From: Anaerolineae bacterium
GTDB taxonomy: Bacteria; Chloroflexota; Anaerolineae; UBA1429
Direction: 5' to 3'
NCBI GenBank assembly: GCA_963675785.1
Contig: OY776562.1
Location: forward strand, 672,001-736,000
DNA: 64,000 nucleotides
In this document: positions 1-20,538 of the stretch, piece after piece
How positions within the stretch are numbered: the first letter of the stretch is position 1
How the letters are laid out: each line of letters begins with the position of its first letter
Made by a program: the position numbers and the translations under genes
The notes under the pieces: generated by a model
The model's database searches: none
What the model was told of the DNA's origin: nothing
Seen by the model: only the letters and a program-made list of their open reading frames with translations

Positions 1-1204
1 CCCGAAGAATCGTTTCGTCAGGGACGCGGGGAAGGTCAGTCAAATAGTCGGTTAATCTTTCAGAGAGCTCCCCCACAAAACCTTGCATGGTGAGAACGGG
101 CCCTCTCAAGTCGTGTGCAAAGACATAGCTGTACTCGCGGATCTCGTCAACCGTATTTTCGAGTTCAGAAGCATAGCCAGCCATTTGATCTTCAGCACGT
201 CGTGTCTGGGTAATATCCTCCAATGTATAAAGATAACCGAGACTTGTCCCTTCCCCATCGTCGAGTTTGTCGATGTTGGCACGCACAACCCGAGTTTGTT
301 TTTGAAAGGTGGATTGGACGATGCTGAATGTGCTGCTTTGCCCGTCTTTGACGAGTGCCCCGAGATTGGGGAGCGAGTCGGTTACTCTGGTATTCAAGAC
401 GTCCTGTTCTTGTACCAACAAGAGCCGCAGAGCAGCCTTGTTGATATCCAGAACAATACCCTGGTCGTTTGTGACGATGACACCACTAGGCATCTTGTCG
501 ATAATGCTGGCACGTGCCAGGGGGATGACTGCCAAAAGGCGGTGCCGATATAATCCCCAGGCCATGATGGCACTGCCAGCACCCAGTGCCATCGGTGTAG
601 GATCAATAAAACCCCAAAGATCCAGATTCAGCAGGTGGGCAACATTGCCACCCCATGCAAAAAGTTGCGCCATCAATACAGAAAGCATACCCTTTTTGAT
701 CGATAGATGAGACGAGTAACCTTCTTTGATCAACAAAAGGGTTCCGAGAGCGAGTAGCACGTATGTGTAAGCGGCGTTGATGTAAAACAGAGGTCCGTAA
801 TCATAGGTAAATTTGGCTAGTTCTTTGGTCCCGTCCCAATAAAGTGCGGGATAGAACAGATGGTGATATTCGTTCGTCCAGACGATGATAAGTGTTATTA
901 CCATGCCAACGATTAAGAAAAAATGCAGGCGCTTGTTACGCGTTTTTGGTTGTTGTGTATATCCGCGAATGGCCAATAGCCAAAAGGGTGGAACCAATGT
1001 GATGCCAAAATATTGAAGGCGAGTCCAAAAGTAAGCTGATACCGGAGTGGTTGCAGTCAGTTCCAGGGCATAGGCAATGGTCCACCAGGAGCTTGCCAAG
1101 AGCAAGACACCAAAATGGCCGGCAGCAACGAGTCGACGATGTTGCCACAAATAGATTCCAACGGCTGCGCACAGGGCCCCGGCGATGTAGATCGATGCAA
1201 TCAC
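1..1204 (-). CDS. 7TM-sensor (HisKA_7TM-like) histidine kinase, probably with a PAS domain; 3' end runs off the window
   Basis: Not in the ORF track; translated by hand at both ends. GTG at 1204 after AAAGGT gives MIASIYIAGALCAAVGIYLWQ...WWTIAYALEL...LQYFGI...VWTNEYHHLFY...YGPLFY (7TM sensor pattern). The same frame near position 120 reads LEDITQTRRAE...VFAHDLRGP (H-box). Confidence 0.85.
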   Translation of the reverse strand, partial: MIASIYIAGALCAAVGIYLWQHRRLVAAGHFGVLLLASSWWTIAYALELTATTPVSAYFWTRLQYFGITLVPPFWLLAIRGYTQQPKTRNKRLHFFLIVGMVITLIIVWTNEYHHLFYPALYWDGTKELAKFTYDYGPLFYINAAYTYVLLALGTLLLIKEGYSSHLSIKKGMLSVLMAQLFAWGGNVAHLLNLDLWGFIDPTPMALGAGSAIMAWGLYRHRLLAVIPLARASIIDKMPSGVIVTNDQGIVLDINKAALRLLLVQEQDVLNTRVTDSLPNLGALVKDGQSSTFSIVQSTFQKQTRVVRANIDKLDDGEGTSLGYLYTLEDITQTRRAEDQMAGYASELENTVDEIREYSYVFAHDLRGPVLTMQGFVGELSERLTDYLTDLPRVPDETILR

Positions 1205-1465
1205 AGTGTCAACCTTTCAAACAATGGCTGAATTCATGCTTTTCTACCACGATACGACTATATGTGAGTTGTTATATTCACACAATAGGTTTACGAGCGA
1301 TTTAACAGATAGTTTATGCCCAGGGACTGTGCAAAATCGGTAAGGACGCTTATTTTACCTTGTTTGAGATTTGGATTGAGTGACCTGACTAGGCATATAC
1401 GAAGTCCCACCAATATGATAAAATACAAGAGTAGTGTATTTACCGTCCTAACAAGGAGGCTGTAC

Positions 1466-1870
1466 ATGACAAAGCTACAAACCATCGAGGGAATTGGCGA
1501 CGAGTACGCGAGGAGATTGGTTGAAGCCAGTATCGATTCAGTCGAGGCGTTATTGCAGGCTGGATCTACGCCTGCTGGCCGGAAGAAGGTCAGTGAGGAT
1601 GCCGATGTAAGCGGTACACTTGTTCTCGAATGGGTGAATCGTGCTGACTTGTATCGAGTGCCCGGTATTCAGGAAGAATATTCGGATCTGCTCGAAGCGG
1701 CCGGTGTGGATACAGTGCCAGAACTCGCTCAGCGTAACCCGGATAACCTTTTTGATACGCTTCAAGTGGTGAATGAGGAAAAGAAGCTCGTTCGTAGATT
1801 GCCCAGTCGTGGGCAGGTTGCGAATTGGGTTGCCAGTGCCAAAGAGCTTCCACGTATTGTGACATACTAG
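1466..1870 (+). CDS. DUF4332 family helix-hairpin-helix protein
   Basis: ATG 1466 after AAGGAGG; IEGIG HhH motif, ADLYRVPGIQEEYSDLLEAAGVDTVPELAQRNP, VRRLPS. Confidence 0.85.
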   Translation: MTKLQTIEGIGDEYARRLVEASIDSVEALLQAGSTPAGRKKVSEDADVSGTLVLEWVNRADLYRVPGIQEEYSDLLEAAGVDTVPELAQRNPDNLFDTLQVVNEEKKLVRRLPSRGQVANWVASAKELPRIVTY

Positions 1871-1891
1871 GGCCCATACTGAGGAATACAC

Positions 1892-1928
1892 GAGGCAGAA
1901 CCTAACAGGGTTCTGCCTCCTTTTATTT
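1892..1928. terminator. Intrinsic terminator between convergent genes
   Basis: GAGGCAGAACC / GGTTCTGCCTC stem followed by CTTTTATTT. Confidence 0.75.
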
Positions 1929-2949
1929 ACCGATAGCTAATCCGAACGTTGCTGTTCTGGAGGGTATCCCTGATCAGAGAAGCGAGTTCAGCCATATGTT
2001 GCGGCGATGGGGCTTTTATGTCATCTAGCAAATAGTCTTGCCCAAGTCGGGTGCGTTTCTCTACGCCCAGCTTGTGGTATCCCAATAGTTCGACCGCCTG
2101 TACCGCCGGAAGCATATTTTCTTGAACAAAATGGGCAGTCGAAGAGATATTTTCCTCGCTATCATTGATGCCAGGAATGATGGGGATGCGAATCCAGATG
2201 CCCTCGTTTTCATCCCGGGCATTAGCCCTCTCGCTGGCTAACCGCGTAGCGTTCTCCAAGATGCTCTTGTTAGAGACGCCCGTATACCGTCTGTGTTGTT
2301 CGTCATCCATGTGCTTGAGATCCAACAGCACGAGGTCAGCGCTGGTGCTGACTTGGTGCAAGCGTTCCCAAGGGCCAAAGCCCGTTGTGTCGAGGGCGGT
2401 GTGGATACCATTCGCCTGGCACATGATGAGCAGATTTTGGGCAAAGTCAGCCTGATAAAGCGGCTCGCCCCCCGTAATCGTAACACCCCCGCCAGAAGCG
2501 GTGTAAAAGGCGCGATCCAGCGCAATCTGGTCAAAAACATGCCGAACGCTCATCTCTTTGCCGACGAATTCCAAGGCTTGTGCATAACATACATCGGCGC
2601 AGGCGCCACAACGCTGACATAGGTCGATGTTATAACAACGGCGAATGCTGGCGATTTGCTCACTCTGCACCTGGGCATCGCGCGCCAGGCGTTCCCCATT
2701 GGCATCCTCAAACCACAGCGCCTCGGTGGGGCAGGCGCGGTAACAGGCCAGGTCGGCGATACAGCGGCTGGCATAGTACATTAGCTCTGGCCGAGGATCG
2801 ATGGATTCTGGGTTATGGCACCAGGCGCAATGTAGATAGCAGCCTTTTAAGAAAACTGCCGTACGAATGCCCGGCCCATCATGTGTGGCTGAACGTTCGA
2901 TATCAAAGACGATGCCCCGCATCTGCGATTGGTAATGGCTTGTCGTCAT
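1927..2949 (-). CDS. Glycyl-radical enzyme activating enzyme (radical SAM, with ferredoxin-like insert)
   Basis: HDGPGIRTAVFLKGCYLHCAWCHNPES (CxxxCxxC), GGGVTITGGEP, insert with CIADLACYRACP and CQRCGACADVC; overlaps the GRE stop codon. Confidence 0.95.
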   Translation of the reverse strand: MTTSHYQSQMRGIVFDIERSATHDGPGIRTAVFLKGCYLHCAWCHNPESIDPRPELMYYASRCIADLACYRACPTEALWFEDANGERLARDAQVQSEQIASIRRCYNIDLCQRCGACADVCYAQALEFVGKEMSVRHVFDQIALDRAFYTASGGGVTITGGEPLYQADFAQNLLIMCQANGIHTALDTTGFGPWERLHQVSTSADLVLLDLKHMDDEQHRRYTGVSNKSILENATRLASERANARDENEGIWIRIPIIPGINDSEENISSTAHFVQENMLPAVQAVELLGYHKLGVEKRTRLGQDYLLDDIKAPSPQHMAELASLIRDTLQNSNVRISYR

Positions 2950-5189
2950 GCGCTCTTCTCGTCGATGATGCGATCGACAACCAACTGCCTGAAAGCGGGT
3001 GAAAGGCTTGCGAAATAAGCCGAGAATCCGGTGACGCGAACCACCAGGTCAGGGTGCAACGAGGGGTCGCGGTGAGCCTCAAGAACTTTGGCCGAGTCCA
3101 TGATGTTCATATTGATCTGGGTTCCTCCCAAGCGAAAATGGGTGAGGATCAAGTTCATCACATAATCCACACCGCCTTCTTCTCGAGAGAGCATGGGGTC
3201 TAGTTCGATCTGCATGGGTGCGGCGTTGCCGTGCCCTGGTTGTACGCCTGCGATAGAGGCAGCCAGTGCTGTGGCGGCGCCGTCCTTACGAAAGCCTGGA
3301 TCGGGATTGGCACCGTGGGATATGGGTGCACCAGCAGGGCGGCCGTTGGGGGTTGCCCCCAATATTTTGCCCATGGAGATCGTATTCGCCCAGGAAAAGA
3401 TGCCCGGAATCATCTTGAATCCGTTCGGCGTCGTCTTTTCGGTGATCAATCGAGTCAGCATTTCCGAGACACGCAAGGCGTACTCGTCAGCCAGGGTGCC
3501 GCCCATGCCATAGTGCGGCACGCTCTTCATCATCAGCCGCTTTAGCTCGCCCTCGCGACCGGCCCAGTCGTTATCGAGAGATTCGATCAACTCTTGCCAG
3601 GAGAGACGTCGTTCTTGAATGATGCGCTGCTCAATGGCGGCCAGGGAATCTACGGCAGTGGCAAAGCCGGCCACATCGAGACAGATGTTATACTCGTCTA
3701 CGCCGCCATATGAGGCATCCAGCCCCCGCTCGATGGGGCCGTGGCAGAGCAAGTCGAGAACGAGTTCGGGAAAGACCTCGTGCATGTGGGCCATCTGAAA
3801 GTCGATGCTCTGAGCGGTGCCGAGTACAGCAGCCCTGAAATGATCTTCCAGATGTTCCCACAGCGGCTGCATACTACCGGCTGTCTCCCAGCCGGTGGGC
3901 ATATCGTGGATGGCCACATCCAACACGCGGGCAATGTTGATCTTGATGCAGTCGTTCATGGTGTATTCCCGGCCGGGCAGGGCAGACCAGTGGCACCCCG
4001 AATAGGCGCGCTGTCGGGCTGTTTCCAGGTCATAGCCATTGCGGCAGTACCCAGCGATGGAGGCGTCGGTGCCCAGGAACTTGGGGATGCCTAACTTGTC
4101 TTCAAAGAGAATCTCGACACCCTTGCGCAGTGTGCCCGTGTCACAGCCTTCGGCCACAGCTACAGCGAGGTTGCAAGGTATCTTGAGCCGATGTGTTGCT
4201 TCGAGGATGAGGTAAGACAGATGGGTGGTGACATCGCGACCATCTTTGTCCGGCCCGCCGATTTGCAGATAGGCCGTATCCCGCGCGAACAAGCAGGCTA
4301 GATAAAAGATGGCTTCCTCGTCGTTCAGCGTGCCCGCTTGCGTTTCGGCATCGTAATAAGGCTGCAAGAGTACGTCCAGCCGCCCCAATGAGCCGCTACC
4401 ATTGTACATGCGTGCGGCCATCTGAAACCAGAGCATCCACTGGCAGGCTTCGCGAAAGGTGGTTGGCGGTTCGCTGACCAATCGCTCGTTGATCTCAGCC
4501 ATCTCCAGCAGGTTTTGACGAACGGACGCATTCACTTCCGCGGCAGCCAACCGTCGTGCCTCGGCGGCGTTGTTGGCAATCCAGGCTTGCATACCGATGA
4601 CCACGTCGGCCAAGCCGTTGTAGAATTCGGCGCTTTCGGGGTGCTGCTGCCGCCCCTCGTCAATGCGCTCTTTGATTTGTCCCCAGCCCTGCGCGAGACC
4701 GATGGCTAAATCCTGGCAAAAGTGCTGCTTGGCGCCAATAGCCCCCTCGAGCTGATATTTGGCTCTGACGGGTTTGAGGTCCTCATAGCTGAATTCAGGC
4801 TTCCAATCGACAGCGCGATAGGACAAGAAATTGACCATGTAGCCACCAGCCAGCGCGCTCATGGGGTCGATATAGGTGGGATGATTCTCCAACAAACGGC
4901 GGTAATTGGCACCAGTCGCCCTGGCTCCATAAAAGCTGCCGTTTTCGTGGTTGGGTATGATCTCGATGCCGTCCAGCAGTACGTCGGTGATGGGCATTCC
5001 CGAGCCGCTGATGGTTTCTACCAGCTTGCGCCGCTCTGCTGGGGGCAGGATCAAGGCGTGATCGTCGTGATCCATCGCGCCGACGACCTGTTGCTTTTCT
5101 TGTGTCTGGGCCATTTTGGTCTCGCGGATGGCGCGTATTCTGGCGTCATAGCTATAGTCGAGTTTTGATTCTGCCATGTGGATTTTCAT
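2946..5189 (-). CDS. Glycyl radical enzyme (PFL-like superfamily), substrate unknown
   Basis: C-terminal LVVRVTGFSAYF glycyl-radical loop, SLGRLD, GATPNGR, Cys loop YSGCHW; ATG 5189 follows GAAAGGT (alternative start 5177). Confidence 0.93.
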   Translation of the reverse strand: MKIHMAESKLDYSYDARIRAIRETKMAQTQEKQQVVGAMDHDDHALILPPAERRKLVETISGSGMPITDVLLDGIEIIPNHENGSFYGARATGANYRRLLENHPTYIDPMSALAGGYMVNFLSYRAVDWKPEFSYEDLKPVRAKYQLEGAIGAKQHFCQDLAIGLAQGWGQIKERIDEGRQQHPESAEFYNGLADVVIGMQAWIANNAAEARRLAAAEVNASVRQNLLEMAEINERLVSEPPTTFREACQWMLWFQMAARMYNGSGSLGRLDVLLQPYYDAETQAGTLNDEEAIFYLACLFARDTAYLQIGGPDKDGRDVTTHLSYLILEATHRLKIPCNLAVAVAEGCDTGTLRKGVEILFEDKLGIPKFLGTDASIAGYCRNGYDLETARQRAYSGCHWSALPGREYTMNDCIKINIARVLDVAIHDMPTGWETAGSMQPLWEHLEDHFRAAVLGTAQSIDFQMAHMHEVFPELVLDLLCHGPIERGLDASYGGVDEYNICLDVAGFATAVDSLAAIEQRIIQERRLSWQELIESLDNDWAGREGELKRLMMKSVPHYGMGGTLADEYALRVSEMLTRLITEKTTPNGFKMIPGIFSWANTISMGKILGATPNGRPAGAPISHGANPDPGFRKDGAATALAASIAGVQPGHGNAAPMQIELDPMLSREEGGVDYVMNLILTHFRLGGTQINMNIMDSAKVLEAHRDPSLHPDLVVRVTGFSAYFASLSPAFRQLVVDRIIDEKSA

Positions 5190-5257
5190 GCGCACCTTTC
5201 ATCGTGCGGTTCGTTCGGATGATGTGACCGTTGAAATAGCACACCCCAGTGGCTGTG

Positions 5258-7165
5258 TCAATCGACAGGTTGGAGAGTATCTCTCTGGGGGCTGGGCACG
5301 TGAATGTCCAGACGGGTCAACGTTTGAGGCGCGGGGATACCCTGGTGATCATAGCCGGCCAAACGGTAGTAGCGATCCAGCATCTTGTCGAGCTTGACGG
5401 GCTGCCCTTGGTTAGAACCTTCCGGCGTCTCACTGGTAAGGCGTGCCGGTAGTGTATCGTCCTGGCGGGTAACGCCGCGCTGTGTGTTCAGGTAGCGCTC
5501 GAGGGTGTGGATGCGCTCTCCCGCTTCCAGAAACTCGCTCGCGGTCAAGGGAATGCCGGTAATGGCCGTATAGAGCTGGGCGTAGGGGGATACATCAAAT
5601 AGCTTGACCGTGAGGCTTGGGGCTGCCCACAAAGCGACGGACTTGGCCCAATTGGGGGTTAGACGGATGAGTGGTGCTTGTAGTAGATAAGCATAGGCGG
5701 TAAAGAGGCAGGTTTGTAATGAATTGAGCGCCGCATACAGCCGGTTGAAAAAGAAAACCATTTCAGCTTTACCGCGTGTACCTTGGGGGTTCTGAAGCCC
5801 AAGAAAGGATTCAAGCACGAATGAAGTGGCTGTGAGGTGGCATCCCCCGCGATTCGATACCGCATAAGCCAGACCTTGTCCCCAGGCACTGCGCGGGTCA
5901 TAAGCGGGCAGTTCCATACCCTTGACCTGGATAGCAAAAGACTCGCCGCCGTACTTGGCCGCTAGCCAACGTGAGCCGTTGGCCAGTTCATCACCTAGGC
6001 CGTTACGGTGTGCCGTCTGTTCAATGGCCCTACTCATCTCCTCGGCATTGCCAAAGTGGAGGGGCCAATCGAGGAGCCCTCGTTCGGTTGCCTCGGCAGC
6101 GTAAGCCAGCGTACCGCCCATGGAGATAGTGTCCATGCCCAGTTCGTCGCACTGCTCGCCCAATTGGCGCACAGCCTCGCGTTCCAGAATTCCCAGGTTG
6201 GGGCCTAGCAGACCAACCGTCTCGTACTCTGGGATTTTCACTCGTCGTCCATCGACTGTTGTACCGCTGTGCCCGCAGAGGATAGCGCAGGTTCGGCAAG
6301 CATGGGGTTTGGCATTATAGGCTTGGGCCCACACCGAGCCCGCCAGGCCATCGATATCGGCATTCCCACCCCGGAAATTGCGCACGGGCAAAAGCCCGGC
6401 CTCCTGGCAGATGGCCAGATTAGCCAGCGTCCCCTGTTGCCGGTAAAGCCTCCCCGTATATACGTTGTCGTTCAGATAGGTAATGAGCTTGGTGCGGAGT
6501 GCCATCAGCATTTCAGGGTCTACCGGGACGATCTTTTCCTTCGTTCCGCGAATGCTGATGGCTTTGACACCCTTGGCTCCCAAGACAGCGCCAAACCCGG
6601 CTCGCCCCAGAAAGCGCGTGCCGCAGGCTATGTTGGCATAGCGGACCTGGTTCTCTCCCGCGGGGCCAATGACCAGGGCACTGTCGTTTCGCCCGAGCGC
6701 GAGTGCATTTGTCGTCGCTGTGGTCGAGAGGCCCAATAATGAGGAAGCATCATGAAAGGCAACGCCGTTTTCGCTGATTTCGATGTGCAGGGGCACATCT
6801 GTTGCCCCCCGAAGAATGAGCCCATCCAATGAAAGCGACTTGAGTGCCAAACCGAAATCACCTCCGCAGGAGGCAGAGGCCACCAGGTTTGTTAGCGGTG
6901 AGAGGGATACGGCTGAAAAGCGGCTGGAACAGGGCATGCCGCTGCCAGCGAGAATGCCGGGCATGAGGATAAAGGGATTATCTGGATCCAGGGGCATTGT
7001 TTGGGGAGTGACAAGGCGCGAGAGCAGTAACAGGCCCAACCCTTTACCGCCCAGGTAGCGGCGTCGGTCGTCGGGTGCAACCTGCATCGTCGATGTCGAT
7101 TGTGTTGAAAGGTCGATTGAAAGAACCTGATTGTTTATGGGATTCATGTATATCGCAGACTGCAT
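5258..7165 (-). CDS. Aldehyde:ferredoxin oxidoreductase family (W/Mo-pterin) protein
   Basis: YLGGKGLG, SPLT, IGPAGEN, GRAGFGAVLGAKGVKAI, CRTCAILC, PEYET, CDELGMDTIS, VKGMELPAYDPR, RGGCH, DDTLPARL. Confidence 0.93.
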   Translation of the reverse strand: MQSAIYMNPINNQVLSIDLSTQSTSTMQVAPDDRRRYLGGKGLGLLLLSRLVTPQTMPLDPDNPFILMPGILAGSGMPCSSRFSAVSLSPLTNLVASASCGGDFGLALKSLSLDGLILRGATDVPLHIEISENGVAFHDASSLLGLSTTATTNALALGRNDSALVIGPAGENQVRYANIACGTRFLGRAGFGAVLGAKGVKAISIRGTKEKIVPVDPEMLMALRTKLITYLNDNVYTGRLYRQQGTLANLAICQEAGLLPVRNFRGGNADIDGLAGSVWAQAYNAKPHACRTCAILCGHSGTTVDGRRVKIPEYETVGLLGPNLGILEREAVRQLGEQCDELGMDTISMGGTLAYAAEATERGLLDWPLHFGNAEEMSRAIEQTAHRNGLGDELANGSRWLAAKYGGESFAIQVKGMELPAYDPRSAWGQGLAYAVSNRGGCHLTATSFVLESFLGLQNPQGTRGKAEMVFFFNRLYAALNSLQTCLFTAYAYLLQAPLIRLTPNWAKSVALWAAPSLTVKLFDVSPYAQLYTAITGIPLTASEFLEAGERIHTLERYLNTQRGVTRQDDTLPARLTSETPEGSNQGQPVKLDKMLDRYYRLAGYDHQGIPAPQTLTRLDIHVPSPQRDTLQPVD

Positions 7166-7381
7166 GACGGATTGATTCGCTCATCATGTCACCGACCAGG
7201 GATGCCGTCAACTAGAAGGTTGAATGGCTACCCGGCCGTGCTTTGCGCATTGGACTCTGATATTCAAACACAAAAAGGGGGAGGGTAGATGCGCTACAAG
7301 CGCCGATAGTTTGCCAAGTAGGAGAACTGGTGGCGGCGTGGCTGGATCAAAGACGAATTTCACCGCCACCAGAAGGGGCAT

Positions 7382-7585
7382 CTATTGCGCGGTTTGCAGG
7401 GTGATGATGGTCTGTTGTTCACTGGGGATCAGAGTGATGCGAGAAACATGGCCGCCTATAGGTGCATGTACGGCTTGATCATCGCTGATGCCGAGGTACT
7501 GACCTTTAACCACTTGATGAGAGAGCAATCTGAGTGTCGGGCTATCCACACGAATACACAGGCAATCTGTCAGATGATCCTTCAT
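7382..7585 (-). CDS. Small hypothetical protein with barrel-sandwich-hybrid-like motif
   Basis: Strong AGGAGG RBS; VVKGQYLG...VHAPIGGHVSRI; similar to the ORF at 10611-10820. Confidence 0.7.
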   Translation of the reverse strand: MKDHLTDCLCIRVDSPTLRLLSHQVVKGQYLGISDDQAVHAPIGGHVSRITLIPSEQQTIITLQTAQ

Positions 7586-7612
7586 GTGCGCCTCCTGTTA
7601 CCTAGTTAATCG

Positions 7613-8791
7613 CTACTTTGCGGATAACGTCTCCATATTGGGGCTAGGGTCTTGATCTTGTCGTGCTGCTGGTTTGTGTGAGACGAACAAGAACCCGCCG
7701 ACCAAAGCGGTAAAGGGAGCCACAGTGACCAAGCCAAAACTGCCAACCAGTGTTTTGACGATCTCGGCGGTTACATAATTGGTGTTGATGATAAAGAGTG
7801 GGGGAGTGCCCTGGGCCATGAACAACATCAACAGGGCCATGTACCCCGAGATGTAGGCCATCAGCAGCGTTGTTACCATCGTGCTGGTCATTGCTCGGCC
7901 TACCTCAAAGCCCGATTTGATCATTTCTCCGCGGGAAAGATCAGGTCGTTTGCGAATCACTTCGGCCATAGAGGCAGAGACATCGATGGCAATATCCATC
8001 ACACCACCTGATGCCCCCACAAAGACTGCGGCTACAAAGATGGCATTCAAATCTAGATCAGCAAAGCCGGAGTAGAGCAATGTTTCCGAGTAGGGTTGGA
8101 TCGCGCCGCTCAGTTTGAGTGTGGGCAACATGAGGATGGCCAAAGCGCAGGTTAGGCCTATGCCCAACAGTGCACCCAGAATAGCGACGAGCGCACGCCG
8201 GTTTACACCCGATACAAGACATAGCGTCGATACCGAGATCACAGCGACGAGCAGCAACGAAATGATGATGGGGTCCCAACGATCGAGGATGGCTGGCAGC
8301 CACAGCCGCCAGATGAGGATGATGGCAAAGGCAAAAGAGAGTAATGCTCGCAGGCCGCCCCAACCGGCAAAGGCAATGAGCGCGCCACCGAACAAAAGGA
8401 GCAGAATAAGCTCGGTATCGGCACGGTAGTGGTCATAAGCGGTGACGTTGGTAACGACTCCTCCCGCTTGCTGGATCACCACCAAGCATTCATCGCCTAT
8501 CTGAAAAATCTTGTCGGTTTCCATCTTACCCAGCAGGATATTGACTGCCTGCAAGATCTGTCCTTTGAGTTCGCCCGTCTCGATGCGCACTTGGACGACC
8601 TGTTCGCCCTGTTTGATGATGCCGAACTGTTGAATGTTGCTGTCATCTACTGCGACAACGACTGCGCGCTGCCGATCGACATTTTGGACATAGGCACTCT
8701 CAAAGGGGCTGGGAACGACGAGGACGATGGCAGTGAGTAGGATGATCAAAAGTGAGAAGAGAGCCTGTCGATTATTCAAGAGCTTTTTCAT
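7613..8791 (-). CDS. YibE/F family membrane protein
   Basis: Multi-TM; GWGGLRALLS, GASGGVMDIAIDVSASM, SGFEVGR, MVTTLLMAY, EIVKTLVGSFGLV; likely start ATG 8791 (MKKLL). Confidence 0.88.
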   Translation of the reverse strand: MKKLLNNRQALFSLLIILLTAIVLVVPSPFESAYVQNVDRQRAVVVAVDDSNIQQFGIIKQGEQVVQVRIETGELKGQILQAVNILLGKMETDKIFQIGDECLVVIQQAGGVVTNVTAYDHYRADTELILLLLFGGALIAFAGWGGLRALLSFAFAIILIWRLWLPAILDRWDPIIISLLLVAVISVSTLCLVSGVNRRALVAILGALLGIGLTCALAILMLPTLKLSGAIQPYSETLLYSGFADLDLNAIFVAAVFVGASGGVMDIAIDVSASMAEVIRKRPDLSRGEMIKSGFEVGRAMTSTMVTTLLMAYISGYMALLMLFMAQGTPPLFIINTNYVTAEIVKTLVGSFGLVTVAPFTALVGGFLFVSHKPAARQDQDPSPNMETLSAK

Positions 8792-8860
8792 ACGTTTGCC
8801 TTTTGCTGGCAGTTGGGAGAGGAGCTTGAGGCTTTCTCCCAACTGCCATGTGCCAATTGA

Positions 8861-10420
8861 CTAGAGACCGGCGATGTCAGTCATTGTGTAAAAGATGTCG
8901 GTCTGGTCATAGTAGCCGTTAAACAAGTCAGCGCCGACGCCAATGGCGGAGGTCTGAACGGGGATGCCTGTGTGAGAGTACGAGGTCCAGGCAATGCCGG
9001 CTTTTTGGTTGAGGATGGTGGTGAGCTTCATGGTAAGAGGATCATAGCCACCGTAGAGCAAATAGGTATAGTCGTCGGCAGCACGGAGTTCTTCATCCAG
9101 CATGGATTGTTCGAAACCTGCCTGCACCTCTGCGAGTTCGAGCTCGGTCAGGGCCATTGACAATGTGGTCTCGGCGTCAGCATCACCAGCTTCAGCCTGG
9201 GCGGTTAGGCTAGCACGCTCTTCTGCAGAGATGATCTTGAGGCCAAAAGCGGCTTCGATTTCATCGGCCAAATCGTTGAGGTCAGCGTTCTCGGGTGTGT
9301 GGTTCTCTTTGTAGGCATCGAGAACGGTGCCGAACGTGTCATAGGTCGAGGTCTGGTACTGGATCTTGTCAAAGAAGGTCGAATACTGCGTGCCGGCATA
9401 ACCGATAGTCATACCGCCGGTCTCATGGTCGGCCGTGGCGATGATGAGGGTTTCATCGGGGTGTTCGAGGTAGAATTGGTAGGCGACGTTGATGGCGTCG
9501 TCGAGGGCCAGGGTATCGCCGATGGAGGCAGCAGCATCATTGGCATGGCAGGCCCAGTCGATCTTGCCGCCTTCGACTACCATGATAAAGCCAGTCTCAT
9601 TGTCGAGAACTTCAATGCCCTTGGAAACGAAATCAGCCAGCGTGAGGCTGTTCTCTTCGTTGAGTATGTCAAAAGGCATAGCCTTGTCGGCATCCAGGAC
9701 GGGGTTGATGGCCCAAACCTTTTCGTCGTCAGCCGAGATAGCATTGAACTCTTCGATGGTATCGGCAACGGTATAGCCATTCTGTTCGGCCAGTTCGATG
9801 ACGCTGGACTGGCTGCCGTCATCGCCAAATTCGCGCTTGACGCCGCCGCCCGCGAAATAGTCGAAATCGCTGTTAGCCAGGGTTAGGTCGATGTTGTAAT
9901 AGTTGCTGCGGCTGGGCTCGTGGGCGTAAAACGCAGCTGGGGTGGCGTGGTCGATAGACACCGTGGAGATGACGCCAACTTCCCAACCAGCTTTCTTGGC
10001 TATTTCCGTGATGGTTTCATAGGACTCGGTGCCGTCAGCGTTCATGCCAATGGTGCCAGAGGTTGTTTTGTACCCTGTGGCGATGGCGGTGGCAGTTGAG
10101 GCAGAGTCGGGGATGACCGAGGTGAGGTCATAGGTGGTGTTCATACCTTGTGCAGGGAAGGTGTTCATCAAAAGCTGAACGTCCTCGGGGCGTTCTACAT
10201 CGGACGTAGCCGCCAGGTAGAGCTCAGCGGCATTGCGCTGGGCAACGCCCATGCCGTCGCCAATGAACAAAAAGACATACTTGGCCTGAGCAGACGAGTC
10301 GTCGGTGACTGCTGAGGTGGACTCGGGGGTGGTCGTGGCGTCAGGTGTAGCACACCCGATCATTGCGGCAATCACAGCCAGTGTGAGTACCAGAGATAGC
10401 CAGAGATGCTTCTTCTGCAT
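8861..10420 (-). CDS. phoA: Alkaline phosphatase (PhoA family), predicted lipoprotein
   Basis: Lipobox MIGC; FLFIGDGMG, PDSASTATA (catalytic Ser), HATPAAFYAH, VEGGKIDWACHAND, TADHETGG, SHTG; ATG 10420 after GGAGGG. Confidence 0.93.
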   Translation of the reverse strand: MQKKHLWLSLVLTLAVIAAMIGCATPDATTTPESTSAVTDDSSAQAKYVFLFIGDGMGVAQRNAAELYLAATSDVERPEDVQLLMNTFPAQGMNTTYDLTSVIPDSASTATAIATGYKTTSGTIGMNADGTESYETITEIAKKAGWEVGVISTVSIDHATPAAFYAHEPSRSNYYNIDLTLANSDFDYFAGGGVKREFGDDGSQSSVIELAEQNGYTVADTIEEFNAISADDEKVWAINPVLDADKAMPFDILNEENSLTLADFVSKGIEVLDNETGFIMVVEGGKIDWACHANDAAASIGDTLALDDAINVAYQFYLEHPDETLIIATADHETGGMTIGYAGTQYSTFFDKIQYQTSTYDTFGTVLDAYKENHTPENADLNDLADEIEAAFGLKIISAEERASLTAQAEAGDADAETTLSMALTELELAEVQAGFEQSMLDEELRAADDYTYLLYGGYDPLTMKLTTILNQKAGIAWTSYSHTGIPVQTSAIGVGADLFNGYYDQTDIFYTMTDIAGL

Positions 10421-10513
10421 GGTTCCCTCCAATGGAAATCAAGCGACTTTGACTAGACAAGTATCCTTGCCCTGTGTTAAGGGGAGGAAACTACAGGCTT
10501 AACTGCGGGCAAT

Positions 10514-10553
10514 TGTTTTGTTAAGGTTTAGTTTTTGTTCAGAGGTGGTTTAG
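10514..10553 (-). promoter_or_regulatory. Putative Pho-box-like direct repeats upstream of phoA
   Basis: Minus strand CTAAACC, CTGAACA, CTAAACC, CAAAACA at exact 11-bp period, plus an overlapping CTTAACA. Confidence 0.55.
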
Positions 10554-10557
10554 GAAA

Positions 10558-10582
10558 CAAAAAACCTGCCCGGAGGGCAGGT
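10558..10582 (-). terminator. Intrinsic terminator after the small ORF 10611-10820
   Basis: Minus strand ACCTGCCC-TCC-GGGCAGGT followed by a T run. Confidence 0.8.
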
Positions 10583-10610
10583 AGAGGGAGTGGTGCCTTG
10601 GTCATGCGGT

Positions 10611-10820
10611 TCAGAATGTTCTTTGTAGTGTAAGCTCAACCAATTCTCGAATGTTACTCCAGTGAACATTGGTGATGATACCATCACATGGCGCTTGAAC
10701 TGTCGCTATGCCTAGGGTTCCTAGCGGTTGTCCGGCACGTACGATCTCGGCGACATAACGATCAAAGGCCGGTCCATCGATGAGTACGTTGATGTGTTGT
10801 TCTTGCACAGTCACTTTCAA
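10611..10820 (-). CDS. Small hypothetical protein with barrel-sandwich-hybrid-like motif
   Basis: IVRAGQPLG...VQAPCDGIITNV; followed by a terminator; similar to 7382-7585; TTG start uncertain. Confidence 0.6.
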   Translation of the reverse strand: MKVTVQEQHINVLIDGPAFDRYVAEIVRAGQPLGTLGIATVQAPCDGIITNVHWSNIRELVELTLQRTF

Positions 10821-10938
10821 ATCGCTTTCTTTATCACTTCACCCGGGGTGTGCTCACAATATCCCAGGATTTCTACAACCATTCGCCATCGCTGTGTTCA
10901 TACCAGGAGAGAGTATTACTGGCGAATGGTGTTATGAG

Positions 10939-11070
10939 TGGTGCGACACGTGCGGAGTGAGGGTTGCCTATACCGGTAGCTGCAGGGGGACCGGAGAGGC
11001 TGTGGAGGATGCTGCAAGCGGATCAATGAATAATCTATTCAGTTGTCTCACTCCGCATGGTCATTCACCA
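10939..11070. ncRNA. Candidate structured non-coding element (family not recognised)
   Basis: GTGCGGAGTGAG (10950-10961) pairs with CTCACTCCGCAT (11047-11058), extended by TGGTG/CACCA; encloses hairpins CCGGT..ACCGG and TGAATA-ATC-TATTCA. Confidence 0.35.
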
Positions 11071-11148
11071 TCTGTAGGATAAAACACGCCTATTAAGAGA
11101 AAACGAATGGCGGGTAAACTGTTTGTTAACGACCAGGAAACAAATACC

Positions 11149-11177
11149 TTGACGATGGGCTACCCGGCGCTCATAAT
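11149..11177 (+). promoter_or_regulatory. Sigma70-type promoter for the pfkA operon
   Basis: TTGACG-17bp-CATAAT. Confidence 0.65.
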
Positions 11178-11211
11178 GAAAATACAATTATATGGATGAA
11201 GGGAGCCTCTC

Positions 11212-12276
11212 ATGGGCTGTGGCCTGATCGGGATTCTGACCTCCGGGGGAGATTGCCCCGGACTGAACGCGGCGATCCGGGCTGTTGGTAAAGCCGCCCA
11301 TTCCATGGACATGGAAGTGATTGGTTTTCGTGATGGGTTCCGCGGCCTCGTGGAAAACCGCACCGTACGTCTCGATAACGCGGCGCTCTCTGGTATTCTC
11401 ACCACTGGCGGCACTTTGTTGGGTACCAGTCGAGACAAACCTCATCGCTTCCCCGTAGCTAGCAGTGGCACAATGAACATGGTGCCCGTCGCAGTCGAGA
11501 ACTATTACCGTAATCATCTGGATTGCTTGGTCTGCATGGGGGGCAATGGCACGCAAAAAAACGCTCTTCGCCTGGCCAAAGAGGGCATCAACGTTATCAC
11601 CCTTCCCAAGACTATCGACAATGATATTTGGGGCACTGATGTGAGTTTTGGTTTTGATACGGCTATGGCTGTTGGGGCTGAAGCAGTAGACCGTCTCCAT
11701 ACGACTGCAGATAGCCATCAGCGCATCATTGTGGTTGAACTGATGGGGCATAGAGCTGGTTGGTTGGCTTTGGGGGCTGGTATTGCCGGTGGCGCAGATG
11801 CAATTCTCATCCCCGAGATTCCTTATTCGATCGAGGCAGTAGCTGAGGCTATTCTGGTACGTAGCCGCCATGGCAAGCGTTTTTCCATTGTGGCCCTGGC
11901 CGAAGGCGCTCGTCCTGTAGGGTATGATGAGCATGACGACGAAGAAGAGACCAACGATTTTTGGCATGTACACAGCCTTAATTTGGTAAACAAGCTGCAG
12001 GAGATCACCAAACTGGAAGCACGGTATACAGCTTTGGGGCACCTACAGCGAGGTGGCACGCCCACGCCCAACGATCGTCTCTTGGCGACGCGTGTAGGTA
12101 CGCGTTGTGTCGAGATGATCCGCGATGGCGTGACCAATTCACTCGTTGCAGTGCGTGGTGATGACTGCATAGCCCTTCCACTCGAAGAGACTGCTGGTCA
12201 GCTCAAGGTAGTGCCAGAGGATCATCCCTGGATTGAGAGCGCCAAGCTGGTGGGCACGACCTTGGGCGAGGGCTAG
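11212..12276 (+). CDS. pfkA: 6-phosphofructokinase (PfkA family)
   Basis: [51 protein letters not shown]. Confidence 0.95.
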
Positions 12277-16211: not shown

Positions 16212-18332
16212 TTACTGGATGCCAAGTTCGTGCAAGCGTGTCAGCAGAGCAACTGATGTTAACGGAGGGTAGAGGATACGTTCTGCGGGCACATCGGGCA
16301 AGTCCCTGCTGTGGCCAGCATAGTGGAATAGTTCAAAGTCTGATCGTATTCGTCGGGCAATCTGTTCAAACCATGCAGGGTCTAGGTGACTGATGGATAC
16401 ACTGGATATGACCAGATCGAGGCGATTGGAATGATCGCGAATGATGTTTAGTGCGCTCTCCCAGTTACCTACGCCCCTGGTTACATAACCAACAGCAGAC
16501 GCAACTTCTATGAGATGCTCCAATTCTTGTAGCTGTGGGGCGATAATCAATGCTTGCGGCAGATTCCGGGTATGTGGCAGACTGTCTGGGGTACCCTCAT
16601 CTCTCATTGTGCCAAAGGTGCTTTCTGCCAGGGGGATATATAGCTCAAAACAGGCACCTCCGTTAGGCACGTTGGTGACCCGCACAGAACCCTTCATACG
16701 AGCGATAAGTCCAGACACTTCGGCCAAGCCCATGCCGGTATGAACGGAAGGGTCTTTTGTAGTGAAAAAAGGCTCAAAGATGAGCTCAAATAACTTTTCG
16801 TTGATGCCGGGCCCTGTATCCGTTATGCGTATGCATCCAGAAGCGCTATTCACATAGGGGTTAGTAGCTTGTTCATGGTTTGAGGTGATGGTGATGGTAA
16901 GAGTGCCCCCTTGTGGCATGGCCTCACGGGCGTTGACTGCGATATTGACCAGAATCTGGTGGAGTGCCGTAGGATCGGCCTGACAGATAATGGGTTTGGG
17001 AGGGGTATTTATGATAATGTTGATATCAGCGCCTAGCGGACCCCGAAGCATACTGATTGTAGACAAGGTGATGCTGATCAAATCGACAGGGTGTGGTGTC
17101 AACGATTCTGCGCGGCTAAAGGCAAGGAGCGGCGCGGCGATCTCTCTTGCCTGAGTACAGGCATTAGTAATGGCATTGATCTCGGGGTGAGCAGGGTGGT
17201 CTATCGGTAGGGCTTCTCGACAAAAATCGGCATACCCAGATATGACGGTGAGTGCATTTCGTAGATCATGTGTAGCACTGCCGGCCAACTGTCCCAGAGC
17301 CGCGAGGCGACTTGATAAGCTCAATGCCCCGATCATTTCTTGACGCAGTGATGAATCTCGGACAAAGAGGCAAGTTCCTAATTGTTCTTTATCAGTATAA
17401 AGGGTCCCTTCAGACACCCACACCGGAATACTTTTCCCATCCTCAAGAGAAAGCTGTCCATCACATATTGCCCCCGCACTAGTTCTATCCCATACAAGTA
17501 GATCAGAAATGGGACGATCGACGTTCTCCTGTGGATTGATACCTGTCAATCTCTGTGCAGCGAGATTAGTCTCTTGGATTCTCTTGTTCTCATCTAGCAG
17601 AAAGACGGCATCCGACATGTTATTGACGATAGCATCGACCGCCGATTTTGCATCGAAAAAGTTGCCCTGCATTCGCATCGCGAGAGGTACTCCCAACAAC
17701 AACGCAAGAGATAAAAGTGGGCCATTGAGATTCGGCGTAGAGCTTTTAGCTGCTGTTAGAATAAGGTGGGTTGTATTCGCGAGGATCAGGGCTATTGCAA
17801 AGGTGTAGAGTGGTAGCGCCACGCGCTTTCTTGTCCCAGGGTTCTCGATGCTAGGTATGATGTTTGCGATTTTTGCGAGAAACCACAAACCAAGCAAGAG
17901 CAGCCAGCCGTGTACGCCGTATCGAACGCCCTGCGGCATTTGTGCGAGCTGATTCCCCGCTATAGAAGCGTTTGCATCCAAAATGAGTTTGTAAACGCAT
18001 GTTCCTATCGTTAAAAGCCCCGTCGAGATCAAGATGATATATCTGTATCGTTTTCCTATCGGTTGTATGCACTGAACGATAGACAGCATTGCTACAATAG
18101 CCAAGCCCACGGCATATGGCCCGAATGACACCAGAGAAGCCAGTATGCGAGCGGTTCCAGCATCGACTAGGGCTATGCGCAGAGCAATAACAATATCCAA
18201 AAAGCCAATTCCGATACATCCCAAGGCATAAGAGAGGTGTAATCGGCTTTTGGGACGGGAACTGAGGACAAGCGCAGCACAGAATTGCACGGCGACGCCG
18301 CAGAATAGGTCAAGAACGACAAGAGCGCTCAT
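16212..18332 (-). CDS. Membrane hybrid histidine kinase (TM sensor, PAS, HisKA, HATPase, degenerate receiver)
   Basis: [41 protein letters not shown]; C-terminal domain reads DLVISSVS. Confidence 0.9.
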   Translation of the reverse strand: MSALVVLDLFCGVAVQFCAALVLSSRPKSRLHLSYALGCIGIGFLDIVIALRIALVDAGTARILASLVSFGPYAVGLAIVAMLSIVQCIQPIGKRYRYIILISTGLLTIGTCVYKLILDANASIAGNQLAQMPQGVRYGVHGWLLLLGLWFLAKIANIIPSIENPGTRKRVALPLYTFAIALILANTTHLILTAAKSSTPNLNGPLLSLALLLGVPLAMRMQGNFFDAKSAVDAIVNNMSDAVFLLDENKRIQETNLAAQRLTGINPQENVDRPISDLLVWDRTSAGAICDGQLSLEDGKSIPVWVSEGTLYTDKEQLGTCLFVRDSSLRQEMIGALSLSSRLAALGQLAGSATHDLRNALTVISGYADFCREALPIDHPAHPEINAITNACTQAREIAAPLLAFSRAESLTPHPVDLISITLSTISMLRGPLGADINIIINTPPKPIICQADPTALHQILVNIAVNAREAMPQGGTLTITITSNHEQATNPYVNSASGCIRITDTGPGINEKLFELIFEPFFTTKDPSVHTGMGLAEVSGLIARMKGSVRVTNVPNGGACFELYIPLAESTFGTMRDEGTPDSLPHTRNLPQALIIAPQLQELEHLIEVASAVGYVTRGVGNWESALNIIRDHSNRLDLVISSVSISHLDPAWFEQIARRIRSDFELFHYAGHSRDLPDVPAERILYPPLTSVALLTRLHELGIQ

Positions 18333-20518
18333 GCGTCTTTATCCCTTTTATGCATCAAGGCAACGGCAATAGCCTCTGCAAGCGATTCTCGCGTAAAAGG
18401 TTTTTTCAGAAACTGCACTTGGCCCAGTTCTGCGCTGATGATTTCTTGTTCGCGTCCGGTATAACCGGACATGTAGACGACGCCAAAACCATTCCGTCTT
18501 TTACCAGCGAGCTGCACAAACTCTGGGCCGCTCACCTCGGGCATAACTACATCGACGAGCAGTACATCAATCTGAAGGGATGTGTCGTTTAAGAATGTCA
18601 GGCCCTCTTCCCAGTTTCCGGCCTCCAGTGTTTCATACCCCAGTTTTCTGAGCATGATTGCAGCCAGATCTCTAACAGGTGTTGTGTCATCCAAGATGAG
18701 AATAGTTGCTTTGACGGAATTGGTTATGTGAGCCTGTTTGCTCGGCATCGCGATGATGGGGGTATCAGAACAGAGTGGCAAAGCGACTTCAAACGTGGTT
18801 CCCGCGTTTTCTATGCTTCTCACATTGACCCATCCATTCATCCGCTCGACTAGAGTTTGTACTGTCGCGAGTCCTAACCCTGTCCCCCCCCCTTGGTCGG
18901 CACGCGTGGTGAAAAAAGGATCAAAGATATGTTCCAGTACATCACGGCTCATGCCGAGGCCAGTATCGCGGATAACGATTACTGCAAAGTCTCCATCAAC
19001 CCCGATTTCACTTTTACTATTTGTGGGCTGAGGCCGATACTCGTCAAGGCTCATGTGCAATTCGCCGCCTTTTGGCATGGCTTCACGAGCATTCGTTACT
19101 AAATTCATGATGATGCGTTCTATAACGCCCGGTCGCGTATGGACGGGGAGAGGTTGGGGAGGTAGAGATACTGTGAAGGTTATCGATTTATCCAGTGCTC
19201 TTTCGATAGCATGTGCGGTTTCTTGGATCAGCTTGGTGAGATCTAGGACAATTCCTTGATCACCCTGTTCATCATCTATAATGGCCAGCTGTTCGATGAT
19301 GCTCTGGGCTTTTTCCGTGGCGGCCAAAATTGATTGGGCGTCACTGACAGTTTGAGCATCATTCAGGCTGGTGGTAAGCAACTCTGCAGAGCCATGAATC
19401 ACAGTGAGTATCTCGCGAAAATCATGCGAGATGCCCTTGATGAGGTGGGCTATGGCACGGAGGTTGCGAGATTTTTCCAACTGGAGTTCTGCGTCTATGT
19501 ATTCACTGATATTGCGCACAGTAAGGACTTGTCCTTGCGTCCTATCAACAAGGTCAACAAGTTGTGCACTGCTGCAAGAAACAGGAATTGGTTTTCCGTC
19601 AGCGTTGACGAGTTCAGCTTGAAAGCCTCTATTTTCGCCAGTCGCTAGTTCTACGGGCTTGATGAGATGGGTATACTCAATAGGACGGGCTAGTTCATTC
19701 CATTTTTTTCCGACTATGCTGGTGCTCGGAAAGCCTACGAGCTGCTCAGCAGCGGGGTTGACCCTTCTAATGCGTCCATCTGTATCCAGGATAAAGAGCG
19801 CATCGGGCATATTCAGCAACAGGCTTTCAGCAACTGATCTTGAAGTTGGATCAAAAGGACGGTAAGCGGAAAGACGAATTCCCATGCCAATGAGCGTCAA
19901 AGAAAAGATCATTGTCGTGATATCTGCTGGGTTCTTTAGCCAGTAAAAGTTCAAGAAAGTGGCGATTCCCCCAGCGAAAAGGCCAACAGCCGACCATCTC
20001 AGGACGATGCGCGAGAAATGTTGGTAGACGATATCTTGCGTAGTATGTTGCGTGCGATAGTCAGCCAAGATACAAGCGGCGCATGCTAGAACACCGCTGA
20101 TGAGGCCGATGATTGCTATGTGCATATTGAGATGAAGCGGAATCCGGGCACCCGGTATGAGTGATGCAGAATTGGGTAATCTCACAAACGCAAGAGTCAC
20201 GGCGCTGGCCAATCCCAAAATCAAAGCAGTCATTGTTGCAGTTCGTCGGACATGAGCAGGGCAAAGTGAGAAAGGAAGTACAAGGATAAGGCAATAGGCG
20301 AGAGGCCAAGCCAAACTGAGGTGAGTAAAGGCTCTGGTGATCTCGATGGATAGAGATCTGTCTGTTCCGGCAAGGACTAGCAGATAGACTGCTAGAAGAG
20401 CAGCGGCAAAGGAATACATGCGCCTCAAAACAGGCCGGCCTCCTCGGAAAAAATTCAGGCCGGCAAGAACAGCCAGTATTATGGCGTCTGCAATGCAAAA
20501 AAGCACATAAATGCTCAA
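18329..20518 (-). CDS. Membrane hybrid histidine kinase (TM sensor, PAS, kinase, receiver)
   Basis: ISHDFRE H-box, NLVTNAREAM, DTGLGM, GTGLGL, receiver ILDD..LVDVVMP..MSGY..KPF. Confidence 0.92.
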   Translation of the reverse strand: MSIYVLFCIADAIILAVLAGLNFFRGGRPVLRRMYSFAAALLAVYLLVLAGTDRSLSIEITRAFTHLSLAWPLAYCLILVLPFSLCPAHVRRTATMTALILGLASAVTLAFVRLPNSASLIPGARIPLHLNMHIAIIGLISGVLACAACILADYRTQHTTQDIVYQHFSRIVLRWSAVGLFAGGIATFLNFYWLKNPADITTMIFSLTLIGMGIRLSAYRPFDPTSRSVAESLLLNMPDALFILDTDGRIRRVNPAAEQLVGFPSTSIVGKKWNELARPIEYTHLIKPVELATGENRGFQAELVNADGKPIPVSCSSAQLVDLVDRTQGQVLTVRNISEYIDAELQLEKSRNLRAIAHLIKGISHDFREILTVIHGSAELLTTSLNDAQTVSDAQSILAATEKAQSIIEQLAIIDDEQGDQGIVLDLTKLIQETAHAIERALDKSITFTVSLPPQPLPVHTRPGVIERIIMNLVTNAREAMPKGGELHMSLDEYRPQPTNSKSEIGVDGDFAVIVIRDTGLGMSRDVLEHIFDPFFTTRADQGGGTGLGLATVQTLVERMNGWVNVRSIENAGTTFEVALPLCSDTPIIAMPSKQAHITNSVKATILILDDTTPVRDLAAIMLRKLGYETLEAGNWEEGLTFLNDTSLQIDVLLVDVVMPEVSGPEFVQLAGKRRNGFGVVYMSGYTGREQEIISAELGQVQFLKKPFTRESLAEAIAVALMHKRDKDA

Positions 20519-20538
20519 TCTCAGGTGTCCTGTGTGAA

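Follow-up and report, generated by a model that had tools for sequence, protein, structure and literature searches.

The active sites of glycyl radical enzymes (GREs) of the pyruvate formate-lyase (PFL)-like division are described in a 2026 review by Imrich et al. (PMC13450708). A Cys loop with two cysteines is confined to PFL and TdcE, and a C-x-E motif, the glutamate of which hydrogen-bonds the substrate, is retained in all six C-O eliminases, in CutC and the C-S lyases, and in all three isomerases (PMC13450708). The residue two positions after the catalytic cysteine (Cys+2) touches the substrate in all solved eliminases and isomerases (PMC13450708, PMC7077986), and the HypD structure paper finds no strictly conserved sequence among eliminases beyond the Cys and Gly loops (PMC7077986). 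Among PFL-like GREs other than decarboxylases and X-succinate synthases, all characterised enzymes have either Cys-Cys or C-x-E. Here we describe a GRE gene whose product has neither, located in a 64,000-nucleotide stretch of an Anaerolineae bacterium genome (assembly GCA_963675785.1, contig OY776562.1, positions 672,001 to 736,000), which is called the window below. Its Cys loop reads YSGCHW, and its relatives with tryptophan at Cys+2 form a clade separate from the described enzymes. We consider it reasonably probable that the protein is an active GRE, that it represents a new C-x-W class distinct from PFL, and that it acts on a hydroxylated, probably carbohydrate-derived substrate.

The Cys loop and the known GRE classes

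The GRE gene occupies positions 2946..5189 on the minus strand of the window. Because a GAAAGG ribosome-binding site lies 7 nt upstream of the ATG at 5189 and a database record of 747 aa exists (P0004), this ATG was taken as the start codon, giving a protein of 747 aa; the alternative start, a GTG at 5195, gives 749 aa, and residues are numbered in this longer frame throughout. Pfam assigns the translation to PFL-like (PF02901, E 3.9e-86) and Gly_radical (PF01228, E 8.6e-12). The intact RVTGF Gly loop claimed in the original prediction, which had been made from the letters of the DNA, is found at Arg720-Phe724 (3024..3038, minus strand; VVRVTG723FSAYF), and Gly723, the expected glycyl radical site, is invariant in 50 of 50 aligned sequences. 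The activase that the prediction assigned to this enzyme is encoded at 1927..2949 on the minus strand, its start overlapping the GRE stop by 4 nt; it is a radical-SAM GRE-activating enzyme of 340 aa with a CX3CX2C motif (C37-x3-C41-x2-C44), a two-cluster ferredoxin insert and a TIGR02494 score of 325 bits (cut-off 174). An AF2 model of the GRE computed from the 50-sequence alignment (pLDDT 93.3, pTM 0.93) matched more than 30 solved GRE structures in Foldseek with TM scores of 0.75-0.83 and identities of at most 23%; the scores were nearly flat over eliminases, isomerases and CutC, without a single standout. With a ten-stranded barrel fold, a Gly loop of the RVxG[FWY] type, an aligned cysteine and a cognate activase, the protein belongs to the PFL-like division of the GRE superfamily, and judged by these hallmarks its radical machinery, expected to be oxygen-sensitive, is intact.

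The Cys loop YSGCHW (Tyr398-Trp403; 3987..4004, minus strand) stands in the translation as predicted, within RQRAYSGC401HWSALPGREY. In HMMER alignments against solved structures, Cys401 falls on the catalytic cysteine of CutC (9f3w), HpsG (6lon, Cys462) and PflD (8yjo), Trp403 on the catalytic glutamate of the same enzymes (Glu464 in HpsG) and His402 on their valine or threonine. Cys401 is also invariant in the 50 aligned sequences, and its alignment with the catalytic cysteines argues against the concern that it might not be the thiyl radical residue. The general statements behind the prediction, a Cys-Cys loop in PFL and a catalytic glutamate at Cys+2 in eliminases, agree with the review (PMC13450708). 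The specific claim, that His-Trp replaces Val-Glu, has to be divided: the exchange of glutamate for tryptophan at Cys+2 holds as the defining change, whereas the histidine at Cys+1 varies in the wider clade. Since Cys+1 is H, N, Q, F, G, P or Y over this clade, the residue is unlikely to be catalytic in all its members, and His402 would rather be a specificity residue or a catalytic residue of its own family than the base of the whole clade. For the GCHW enzyme itself, the loop would still be consistent with the different substrate or mechanism proposed originally.

Two further motifs contain candidate active-site residues. In the strand following the Cys loop (EYTMND, Glu410-Asp415; 3951..3968, minus strand), possible relocated acid/base residues are Asp415 at Cys+14, kept in 26 of 26 C-x-W representatives of the wider alignment described below, and Glu410, kept in most of them; both columns are variable in the 71 canonical representatives. 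Glycerol dehydratase has an active-site aspartate, Asp447, which we take to lie at Cys+14 as well; if so, a place of Asp415 within the pocket is supported. The first barrel strand (QHFCQD, Gln157-Asp162; 4710..4727, minus strand) includes His158, which is at least 90% conserved over the aligned GREs.

By motif, curated hidden Markov models, sequence identity to the solved structures and phylogeny, the enzyme falls into none of the known classes, as expected for the possibly uncharacterised class suggested at the outset; it does not cluster with a characterised GRE in either of two trees. Scores against the NCBIfam equivalogs for PFL, PflD, HypD, CutC, HpsG, HpfG, IAD and HPAD were 83-226 bits with cut-offs of 994-1150 (124-226 bits and 1000-1150 for the seven models other than PFL), all 4-12 fold too low. 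The PFL2-3 subfamily model TIGR01774 gave 258 bits (cut-off 678), compared with 600-900 bits for canonical C-x-E representatives. ESM Atlas labels were generic ('formate acetyltransferase family', 'URO-D family').

Sequence comparison with the PDB gave its best matches (E 1e-43 to 1e-61) to the 1,2-eliminases (glycerol dehydratase 1R8W/1R9D, propanediol dehydratase 5I2G, CutC 5FAU, HypD 6VXE, IslA 7KQ3, HpsG 6LON), which have in common with the window enzyme the fold (TM 0.75-0.83), the Gly loop, the aligned cysteine, the two-cluster type of activase and the first-strand histidine. In contrast to them, however, the window enzyme has C-H-W instead of C-x-E, with Trp403 in place of the glutamate, is about 40-100 aa shorter and at most 23% identical, and stands in a separate clade. 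PflD and YbiW, which catalyse ring opening of 1,5-anhydromannitol-6-P and 1,5-anhydroglucitol-6-P (8ID0, 8ID7, 8YJO), are GREs for carbohydrate derivatives, and the gene context of the window family is likewise sugar-related; PflD is the third-best match among solved structures (E 1.6e-48). Unlike the window enzyme, both keep C-x-E (Glu433 in PflD and Glu443 in YbiW; PMC13450708). They group with C-x-E sequences in the tree and are linked to phosphotransferase-system and aldolase genes in Escherichia coli, and the window enzyme scores 196 bits against PRK09983 (cut-off 1109). A precedent for a GRE lacking glutamate at this position is phenylacetate decarboxylase (PAD, PhdB), in which Gln484, Trp495 and Tyr691 are essential (PMC13450708); it was compared with the window enzyme by description only, and the gene contexts are unrelated. 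Representatives of the GC(G/A/V)Q type lie outside the C-x-W clade in the tree.

As far as found, neither a Cys-x-Trp loop nor the clade is described in the literature searched, which lay outside subscription-only papers and supplementary similarity-network and tree files (e.g. Supplementary Figure 8 of PMC6258724). The AARE paper (PMC11528403) and the limonene paper (PMC12583861), which concerns an X-succinate synthase of Syntrophobacteraceae, are unrelated to the clade, and PFL terms are absent from PMC11748557.

Extent of the GCHW family and of the C-x-W clade

A word-indexed homologue search yielded 1764 relatives, the best 120 of which are 61-67% identical to the window enzyme; those with names are entered as 'formate acetyltransferase' of Anaerolineae or Chloroflexi. 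GCHW is present in all of these best 120 (119 by regular expression, P0017 by BLAST) and in 80 of the 80 best genome loci (77 by regular expression; the other 3 read GCHWCAMPGREY), and Gly400, Cys401, His402 and Trp403 are invariant in an alignment of 25 sequences in the same identity range. Relatives are encoded in at least 519 genomes (pattern scan, one genome per species). Most of the hosts belong to Anaerolineae or elsewhere in the Chloroflexota, and some to Bacteroidota, Ignavibacteria, Latescibacterota and KSB1. These alignments and counts indicate that GCHW is a real, widespread and conserved variant and no singleton or chance variant. With the window enzyme (P0001) as the query (E <=1e-100), matches were found in 21 of 24 sister genomes within its bacterial family, up to five per genome and often as several paralogues (2-5). 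In the other families of the class, just 1 of 16 genomes gave a match. One orthologue with 61% identity (L096, G011:C224:2091-4331) has a single in-frame TGA within an otherwise full-length match, for which a sequencing error, a pseudogene and recoding are possible explanations.

A phmmer search of 1.84 billion cluster representatives gave 4534 matches, 929 of them below 1e-30, and 96 near-full-length representatives from the top 150 were aligned. Tryptophan stands at Cys+2 in all aligned representatives with at least 29% identity and in most of those with 24-28%. The loops change with identity, from GCHW (33-56%) and GCNW or VCNW (38-44%) to GCQW, GCFW, GCGW, ACPW and GCYW (24-32%). The motif (I/V)PGxEY comes after each of these loops, and an F(S/Y)SW strand is present in most of the sequences. 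The other 71 aligned representatives have chiefly GC(V/I)E. A FastTree phylogeny with 101 rows and E. coli PflB as the root grouped 26 of 26 C-x-W representatives in a single clade (SH-like 99), within which one sub-clade held 15 rows (GCHW/GCNW/GCQW) and the other 11 (GCFW and others). All 24 full-length C-x-W rows were again on one side of a branch (SH-aLRT 99) in a short IQ-TREE search (LG+G4) of 55 rows, namely C-x-W rows of at least 650 aa, anchors and 26 random canonical rows, from which the truncated P0195 and P0200 (<650 aa) were left out. Both trees include the Cys-loop columns, a handful in about 700, and the named anchors are few (E. coli PflB, PflD and YbiW, and P0252). E. coli PflB, PflD and YbiW, the HpsG equivalog P0252, the long CutC-like P0269 and the second GRE of the window genome were placed outside the clade; among 62 canonical representatives, only P0252 (HpsG) passed an NCBIfam equivalog cut-off. 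The window enzyme fits the definition of the clade in its tryptophan at Cys+2, PGxEY six residues past the cysteine, aspartate at Cys+14, length of about 700-760 aa and monophyly. On the evidence of these trees, the C-x-W clade is large, monophyletic and set apart from all characterised GRE classes.

Tandem C-x-W paralogues occur at three loci. At L015, a GCNW GRE (~1554), an activase and a GCHW GRE (~4849) follow each other, with a similar order at L067 (~1322 and ~4558), so that two GREs may share one activase there; at L023, a GCHW GRE (~8186) is followed by a GCQW GRE (~10538).

The same bacterial family was also searched for PFL itself. The PFL equivalog cut-off (TIGR01255) was reached in 0 of 41 family genomes, the best score being 146 bits against a cut-off of 994, whereas the three controls, E. 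coli, Bacteroides thetaiotaomicron and Lactococcus lactis, were positive. Because no true PFL was found, yet each of these genomes has 1-21 GRE-like matches, and because P0001 has matches in 21 of 24 sister genomes, the family appears to have expanded non-PFL GREs, and the C-x-W clade in particular. Examples of the numbers of GRE-like matches per genome (G000-G056) are 21 in G017, 18 in G003 and 17 in G014, an unusually large repertoire for free-living fermenters. The window genome (one contig, 3.22 Mb) has two PFL-like genes only, the GRE studied here and a canonical S-T-C-V-E enzyme. The latter (L081:1066-3228, minus strand; C1 ~1,098,400-1,100,600 of its own genome) encodes a protein of 720 aa that reads S-T-C-V-E in the Cys loop and RVGGYS in the Gly loop, and a 272-aa open reading frame (ORF) beside it looks by eye like an IclR-type regulator.

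Apparent operon and gene neighbourhoods

Directly upstream of the GRE gene and on the same strand lies a gene of the tungsten-type aldehyde:ferredoxin oxidoreductase (AOR) family (5258..7165, minus strand; 635 aa), with Pfam matches to AFOR_N (E 4e-59) and AFOR_C (E 1.3e-110). The gap to the GRE start is 68 nt, and no terminator-like site was found in it. Given the single strand, this short terminator-free gap and the overlapping stop and start of GRE and activase, AOR, GRE and activase look like one operon. A weak match to a sigma-70-like promoter upstream of AOR (7183..7211, minus strand) is a possible start of the common transcript. A search against Rfam, covering riboswitches and other RNAs, gave no match at E <= 0.1 in window positions 1-12000.

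Further upstream of this unit, the window contains genes for a YibE/F-like membrane protein (7613-8842, minus strand) and for an alkaline phosphatase (8861-10432, minus strand) whose N-terminus resembles a signal peptide, and a link of these genes to the GRE is not evident. A phosphofructokinase (PFK) gene is located 4 kb away. Three consecutive ORFs of 706, 729 and 744 aa at 16212-22773 (minus strand) resemble by eye PAS/histidine-kinase hybrid sensors with C-terminal receiver-like parts.

Gene contexts elsewhere were collected for 80 genome loci and 43 further loci (20 from genomes of relatives and 23 metagenomic). Over the 80 genome loci, the GRE is adjacent to an activase in 36, a URO-D-like gene in 11, an MR/MLE gene in 9, a gene of the GFO/IDH/MocA type in 5 and AOR in 2. 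AOR was considered as a conserved partner of the GRE and rejected: tblastn placed it near the GRE at only 2 of the 80 genome loci. The 43 further loci gave a single case, the window's own copy (L088), and the 23 metagenome loci among them added none. At the locus of the closest orthologue (66%; L001), GRE, a class-V aminotransferase-like pyridoxal phosphate (PLP) enzyme (8003-9466) and a 740-aa AOR-family protein (9678-11900) share one strand and are separated by 19 and 212 nt. At 9 of the 80 genome loci, and at 3 of the 43 further ones, the gene directly upstream of the GRE is a galactonate-dehydratase-like MR/MLE gene.

Within 2.5 kb of the GREs there are 264 ORFs, 176 of which were annotated, namely the first 120 (L002-L034) and 56 picked by hand. 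The first 120 include glycoside hydrolases (GH10, GH20-like, GH99, GH116, GH127, GH130/43, alpha-galactosidase and fucosidase), two sulfatases, acetyl-xylan esterase, glucuronyl esterase, DUF2961, aldose epimerase and a xylose-isomerase-like barrel, furthermore glucose-6-phosphate dehydrogenase, transketolase and fructosamine kinases, and many housekeeping genes. In Bacteroidota and Ignavibacteria loci, which were picked on purpose, activase, GRE and URO-D-like gene are followed by an SBP_bac_1 binding protein and two permeases, and the last part of the cassette is a PfkB kinase/HAD fusion (L077) or two Zn-dependent dehydrogenases (L076). Overall, the neighbouring genes point to imported carbohydrates or polyols as substrates.

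At Bacteroidota and Ignavibacteria loci, and at some from Chloroflexota (L076:9276-10373, L077:9456-10553, L061:9354-10454, L053:3487-4584, L078:9212-10306, L019:5885-6979 and L118:1389-2477), the URO-D-superfamily protein of about 365 aa is encoded directly 3' of the GRE. It is weakly similar to MtaA/CmuA (E 1e-8), the motifs WYHNCG and ICTKGN are conserved in it, and its H-x-C...C pattern is presumably reminiscent of Zn-dependent methyltransferases. L080 and L050 have another URO-D subgroup (21% identity).

Proposed reaction and alternative explanations

We hypothesize that the activase would install a radical on Gly723, which would generate a thiyl radical on Cys401, and that this thiyl would abstract a hydrogen atom from the substrate as in the common GRE scheme. 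Because Cys+2 touches the substrate in all solved eliminases and isomerases, the indole of Trp403 should by homology line the substrate pocket, where it may act in stacking or as a hydrophobic wall. Tryptophan cannot deprotonate a hydroxyl group and is a classic stacking partner of sugar rings. Acid/base chemistry would thus have to come from other residues, for which Asp415, Glu410 and His158 are candidates, together with His402 in the GCHW family only; in glycerol dehydratase, His164 at the place equivalent to His158 is the proposed proton donor (PMC13450708). The most likely chemistry would be a radical reaction that cleaves a C-O or C-X bond of a hydroxylated, probably carbohydrate-derived small molecule, or rearranges the molecule, to a carbonyl product. 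In the window genome this product may be an aldehyde, as suggested by the AOR gene there and beside the nearest orthologue, and it would be oxidised by the presumably co-transcribed AOR. Having neither Cys-Cys nor C-x-E, the clade must position or activate its substrate differently, and the reaction of the window enzyme is probably new.

Several observations weigh against this interpretation. The gene neighbourhood is poorly conserved over the 80 loci, and the link to AOR is seen just in the window and its nearest orthologue, in the latter with the PLP enzyme intervening, which could indicate amino-acid-derived substrates instead. The window genome has no close URO-D-like partner, its best matches being 28% and 24% identical. 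The annotated neighbours are 176 of 264, including the 56 picked by hand, and the carbohydrate signal is given without comparison with the genomic background, the Anaerolineae and the phyla concerned being rich in carbohydrate genes anyway. Glu410 is glycine in the homologue P0017, and the promoter-like sites (5 found, 3.9 expected) are not above chance.

The alternative named in public annotations, a genuine PFL, is next to negligible in our estimate. Homologues do carry the source names 'formate acetyltransferase' or 'pyruvate-formate lyase', and several cultured Anaerolineaceae are reported as formate producers (PMC5481317). However, both cysteines of PFL are essential (PMC13450708), and the window enzyme, which has the superfamily membership and a glycyl radical domain at the C-terminus in common with PflB and TdcE, lacks the Cys-Cys pair: PFL identity was rejected on Gly400, where PFL has Cys418, and on a TIGR01255 score of 83.5 bits (cut-off 994). 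PflB is also the most distant row from it in the tree, and the family genomes searched contain no true PFL. Assignment to the X-succinate synthases that activate hydrocarbons, or to the decarboxylases of arylacetates, would accommodate a Cys+2 residue other than glutamate, since decarboxylases such as PAD with its essential Gln484 have one (PMC13450708), and metagenomic work finds pflD- and assA-like genes hard to separate (PMC6258724). Even so, we regard this assignment as very unlikely. Structure matches to BSS, MASS and HPAD (E 1e-20 to 1e-26; 4pkc 1.4e-20) are weaker than those to eliminases (1e-45 to 1e-61), the IAD and HPAD equivalogs give 124-144 bits against cut-offs of 1100-1150, no small-subunit genes were noted beside the GRE among ORFs of at least 80-120 aa, and the neighbours are sugar-related and do not belong to beta-oxidation or aromatic pathways.

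A 1,2-diol or polyol dehydratase resembling glycerol or propanediol dehydratase, with His402 or Asp415 as the substitute base and an aldehyde passed to AOR, would explain the top Foldseek matches (propanediol dehydratase 5i2g and glycerol dehydratase 1r8w, TM 0.78-0.80) and the adjacent, co-oriented AOR gene. His158 lies on the histidine column conserved in most GREs, to which the His164 proton-donor proposal applies (PMC13450708), and the fucosidase, MR/MLE, DHDPS-family and aldo-keto reductase neighbours at some loci would fit a catabolism of deoxy-sugars to a diol. We nevertheless consider such an enzyme unlikely, as six of six C-O eliminases keep C-x-E (PMC13450708), the almost equal Foldseek scores over eliminases, isomerases and CutC indicate no specific kinship, sister subfamilies have Asn, Gln, Phe, Gly, Pro or Tyr where this family has histidine at Cys+1, AOR adjoins the GRE at 2 of 80 loci, and the window genome already has a canonical T-C-V-E GRE. 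The PLP enzyme between GRE and AOR in the closest orthologue would also allow the AOR-linked orthologues to act on a metabolite derived from amino acids or amines, the sugar-linked contexts then belonging to functionally different paralogues. In favour of this, Anaerolineaceae AORs have been proposed to oxidise amino-acid-derived aldehydes (PMC5481317), several characterised GREs use amino-acid derivatives (PMC13450708), and no sugar-specific genes immediately flank the window operon. But two loci are its sole basis, the 61-67% identity and the invariant pocket motif favour one type of substrate, and the PFK gene is 4 kb away in the window, so that we judge this explanation to be distinctly improbable.

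Returning to the proposed C-x-W class acting on a hydroxylated substrate, a bolder version of it may be considered tentatively, although we find it rather doubtful: the whole clade could be a new mechanistic class of 'radical carbohydrate enzymes'. The tryptophan would then form a platform stacking on the ring of a sugar, polyol or sugar acid, and a relocated carboxylate, Asp415 and/or Glu410, would take over the acid/base steps. Carbohydrates imported into the cell would be dehydrated, ring-opened or cleaved at a C-O bond by radical chemistry. The many paralogues would differ in the Cys+1 residue (H/N/Q/F/G/P/Y) as a specificity switch.

Unannotated GRE clades are the open frontier of the field according to the 2026 review (PMC13450708), and the C-x-W clade is a defined target for a new GRE reaction. 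Its spread also makes it relevant ecologically, with the GCHW family by itself present in at least 519 species-level genomes. The public name 'PFL' is misleading here: at least one reconstruction of Anaerolineaceae metabolism infers formate production from such a label, whatever GRE type that gene encodes (PMC5481317), and correcting the label changes the predicted fermentation pathways. If the bolder version were true, Anaerolineaceae and some Bacteroidota would have an unrecognised anaerobic route of sugar breakdown, in which carbohydrate GREs would replace what is annotated as PFL in the same genomes.

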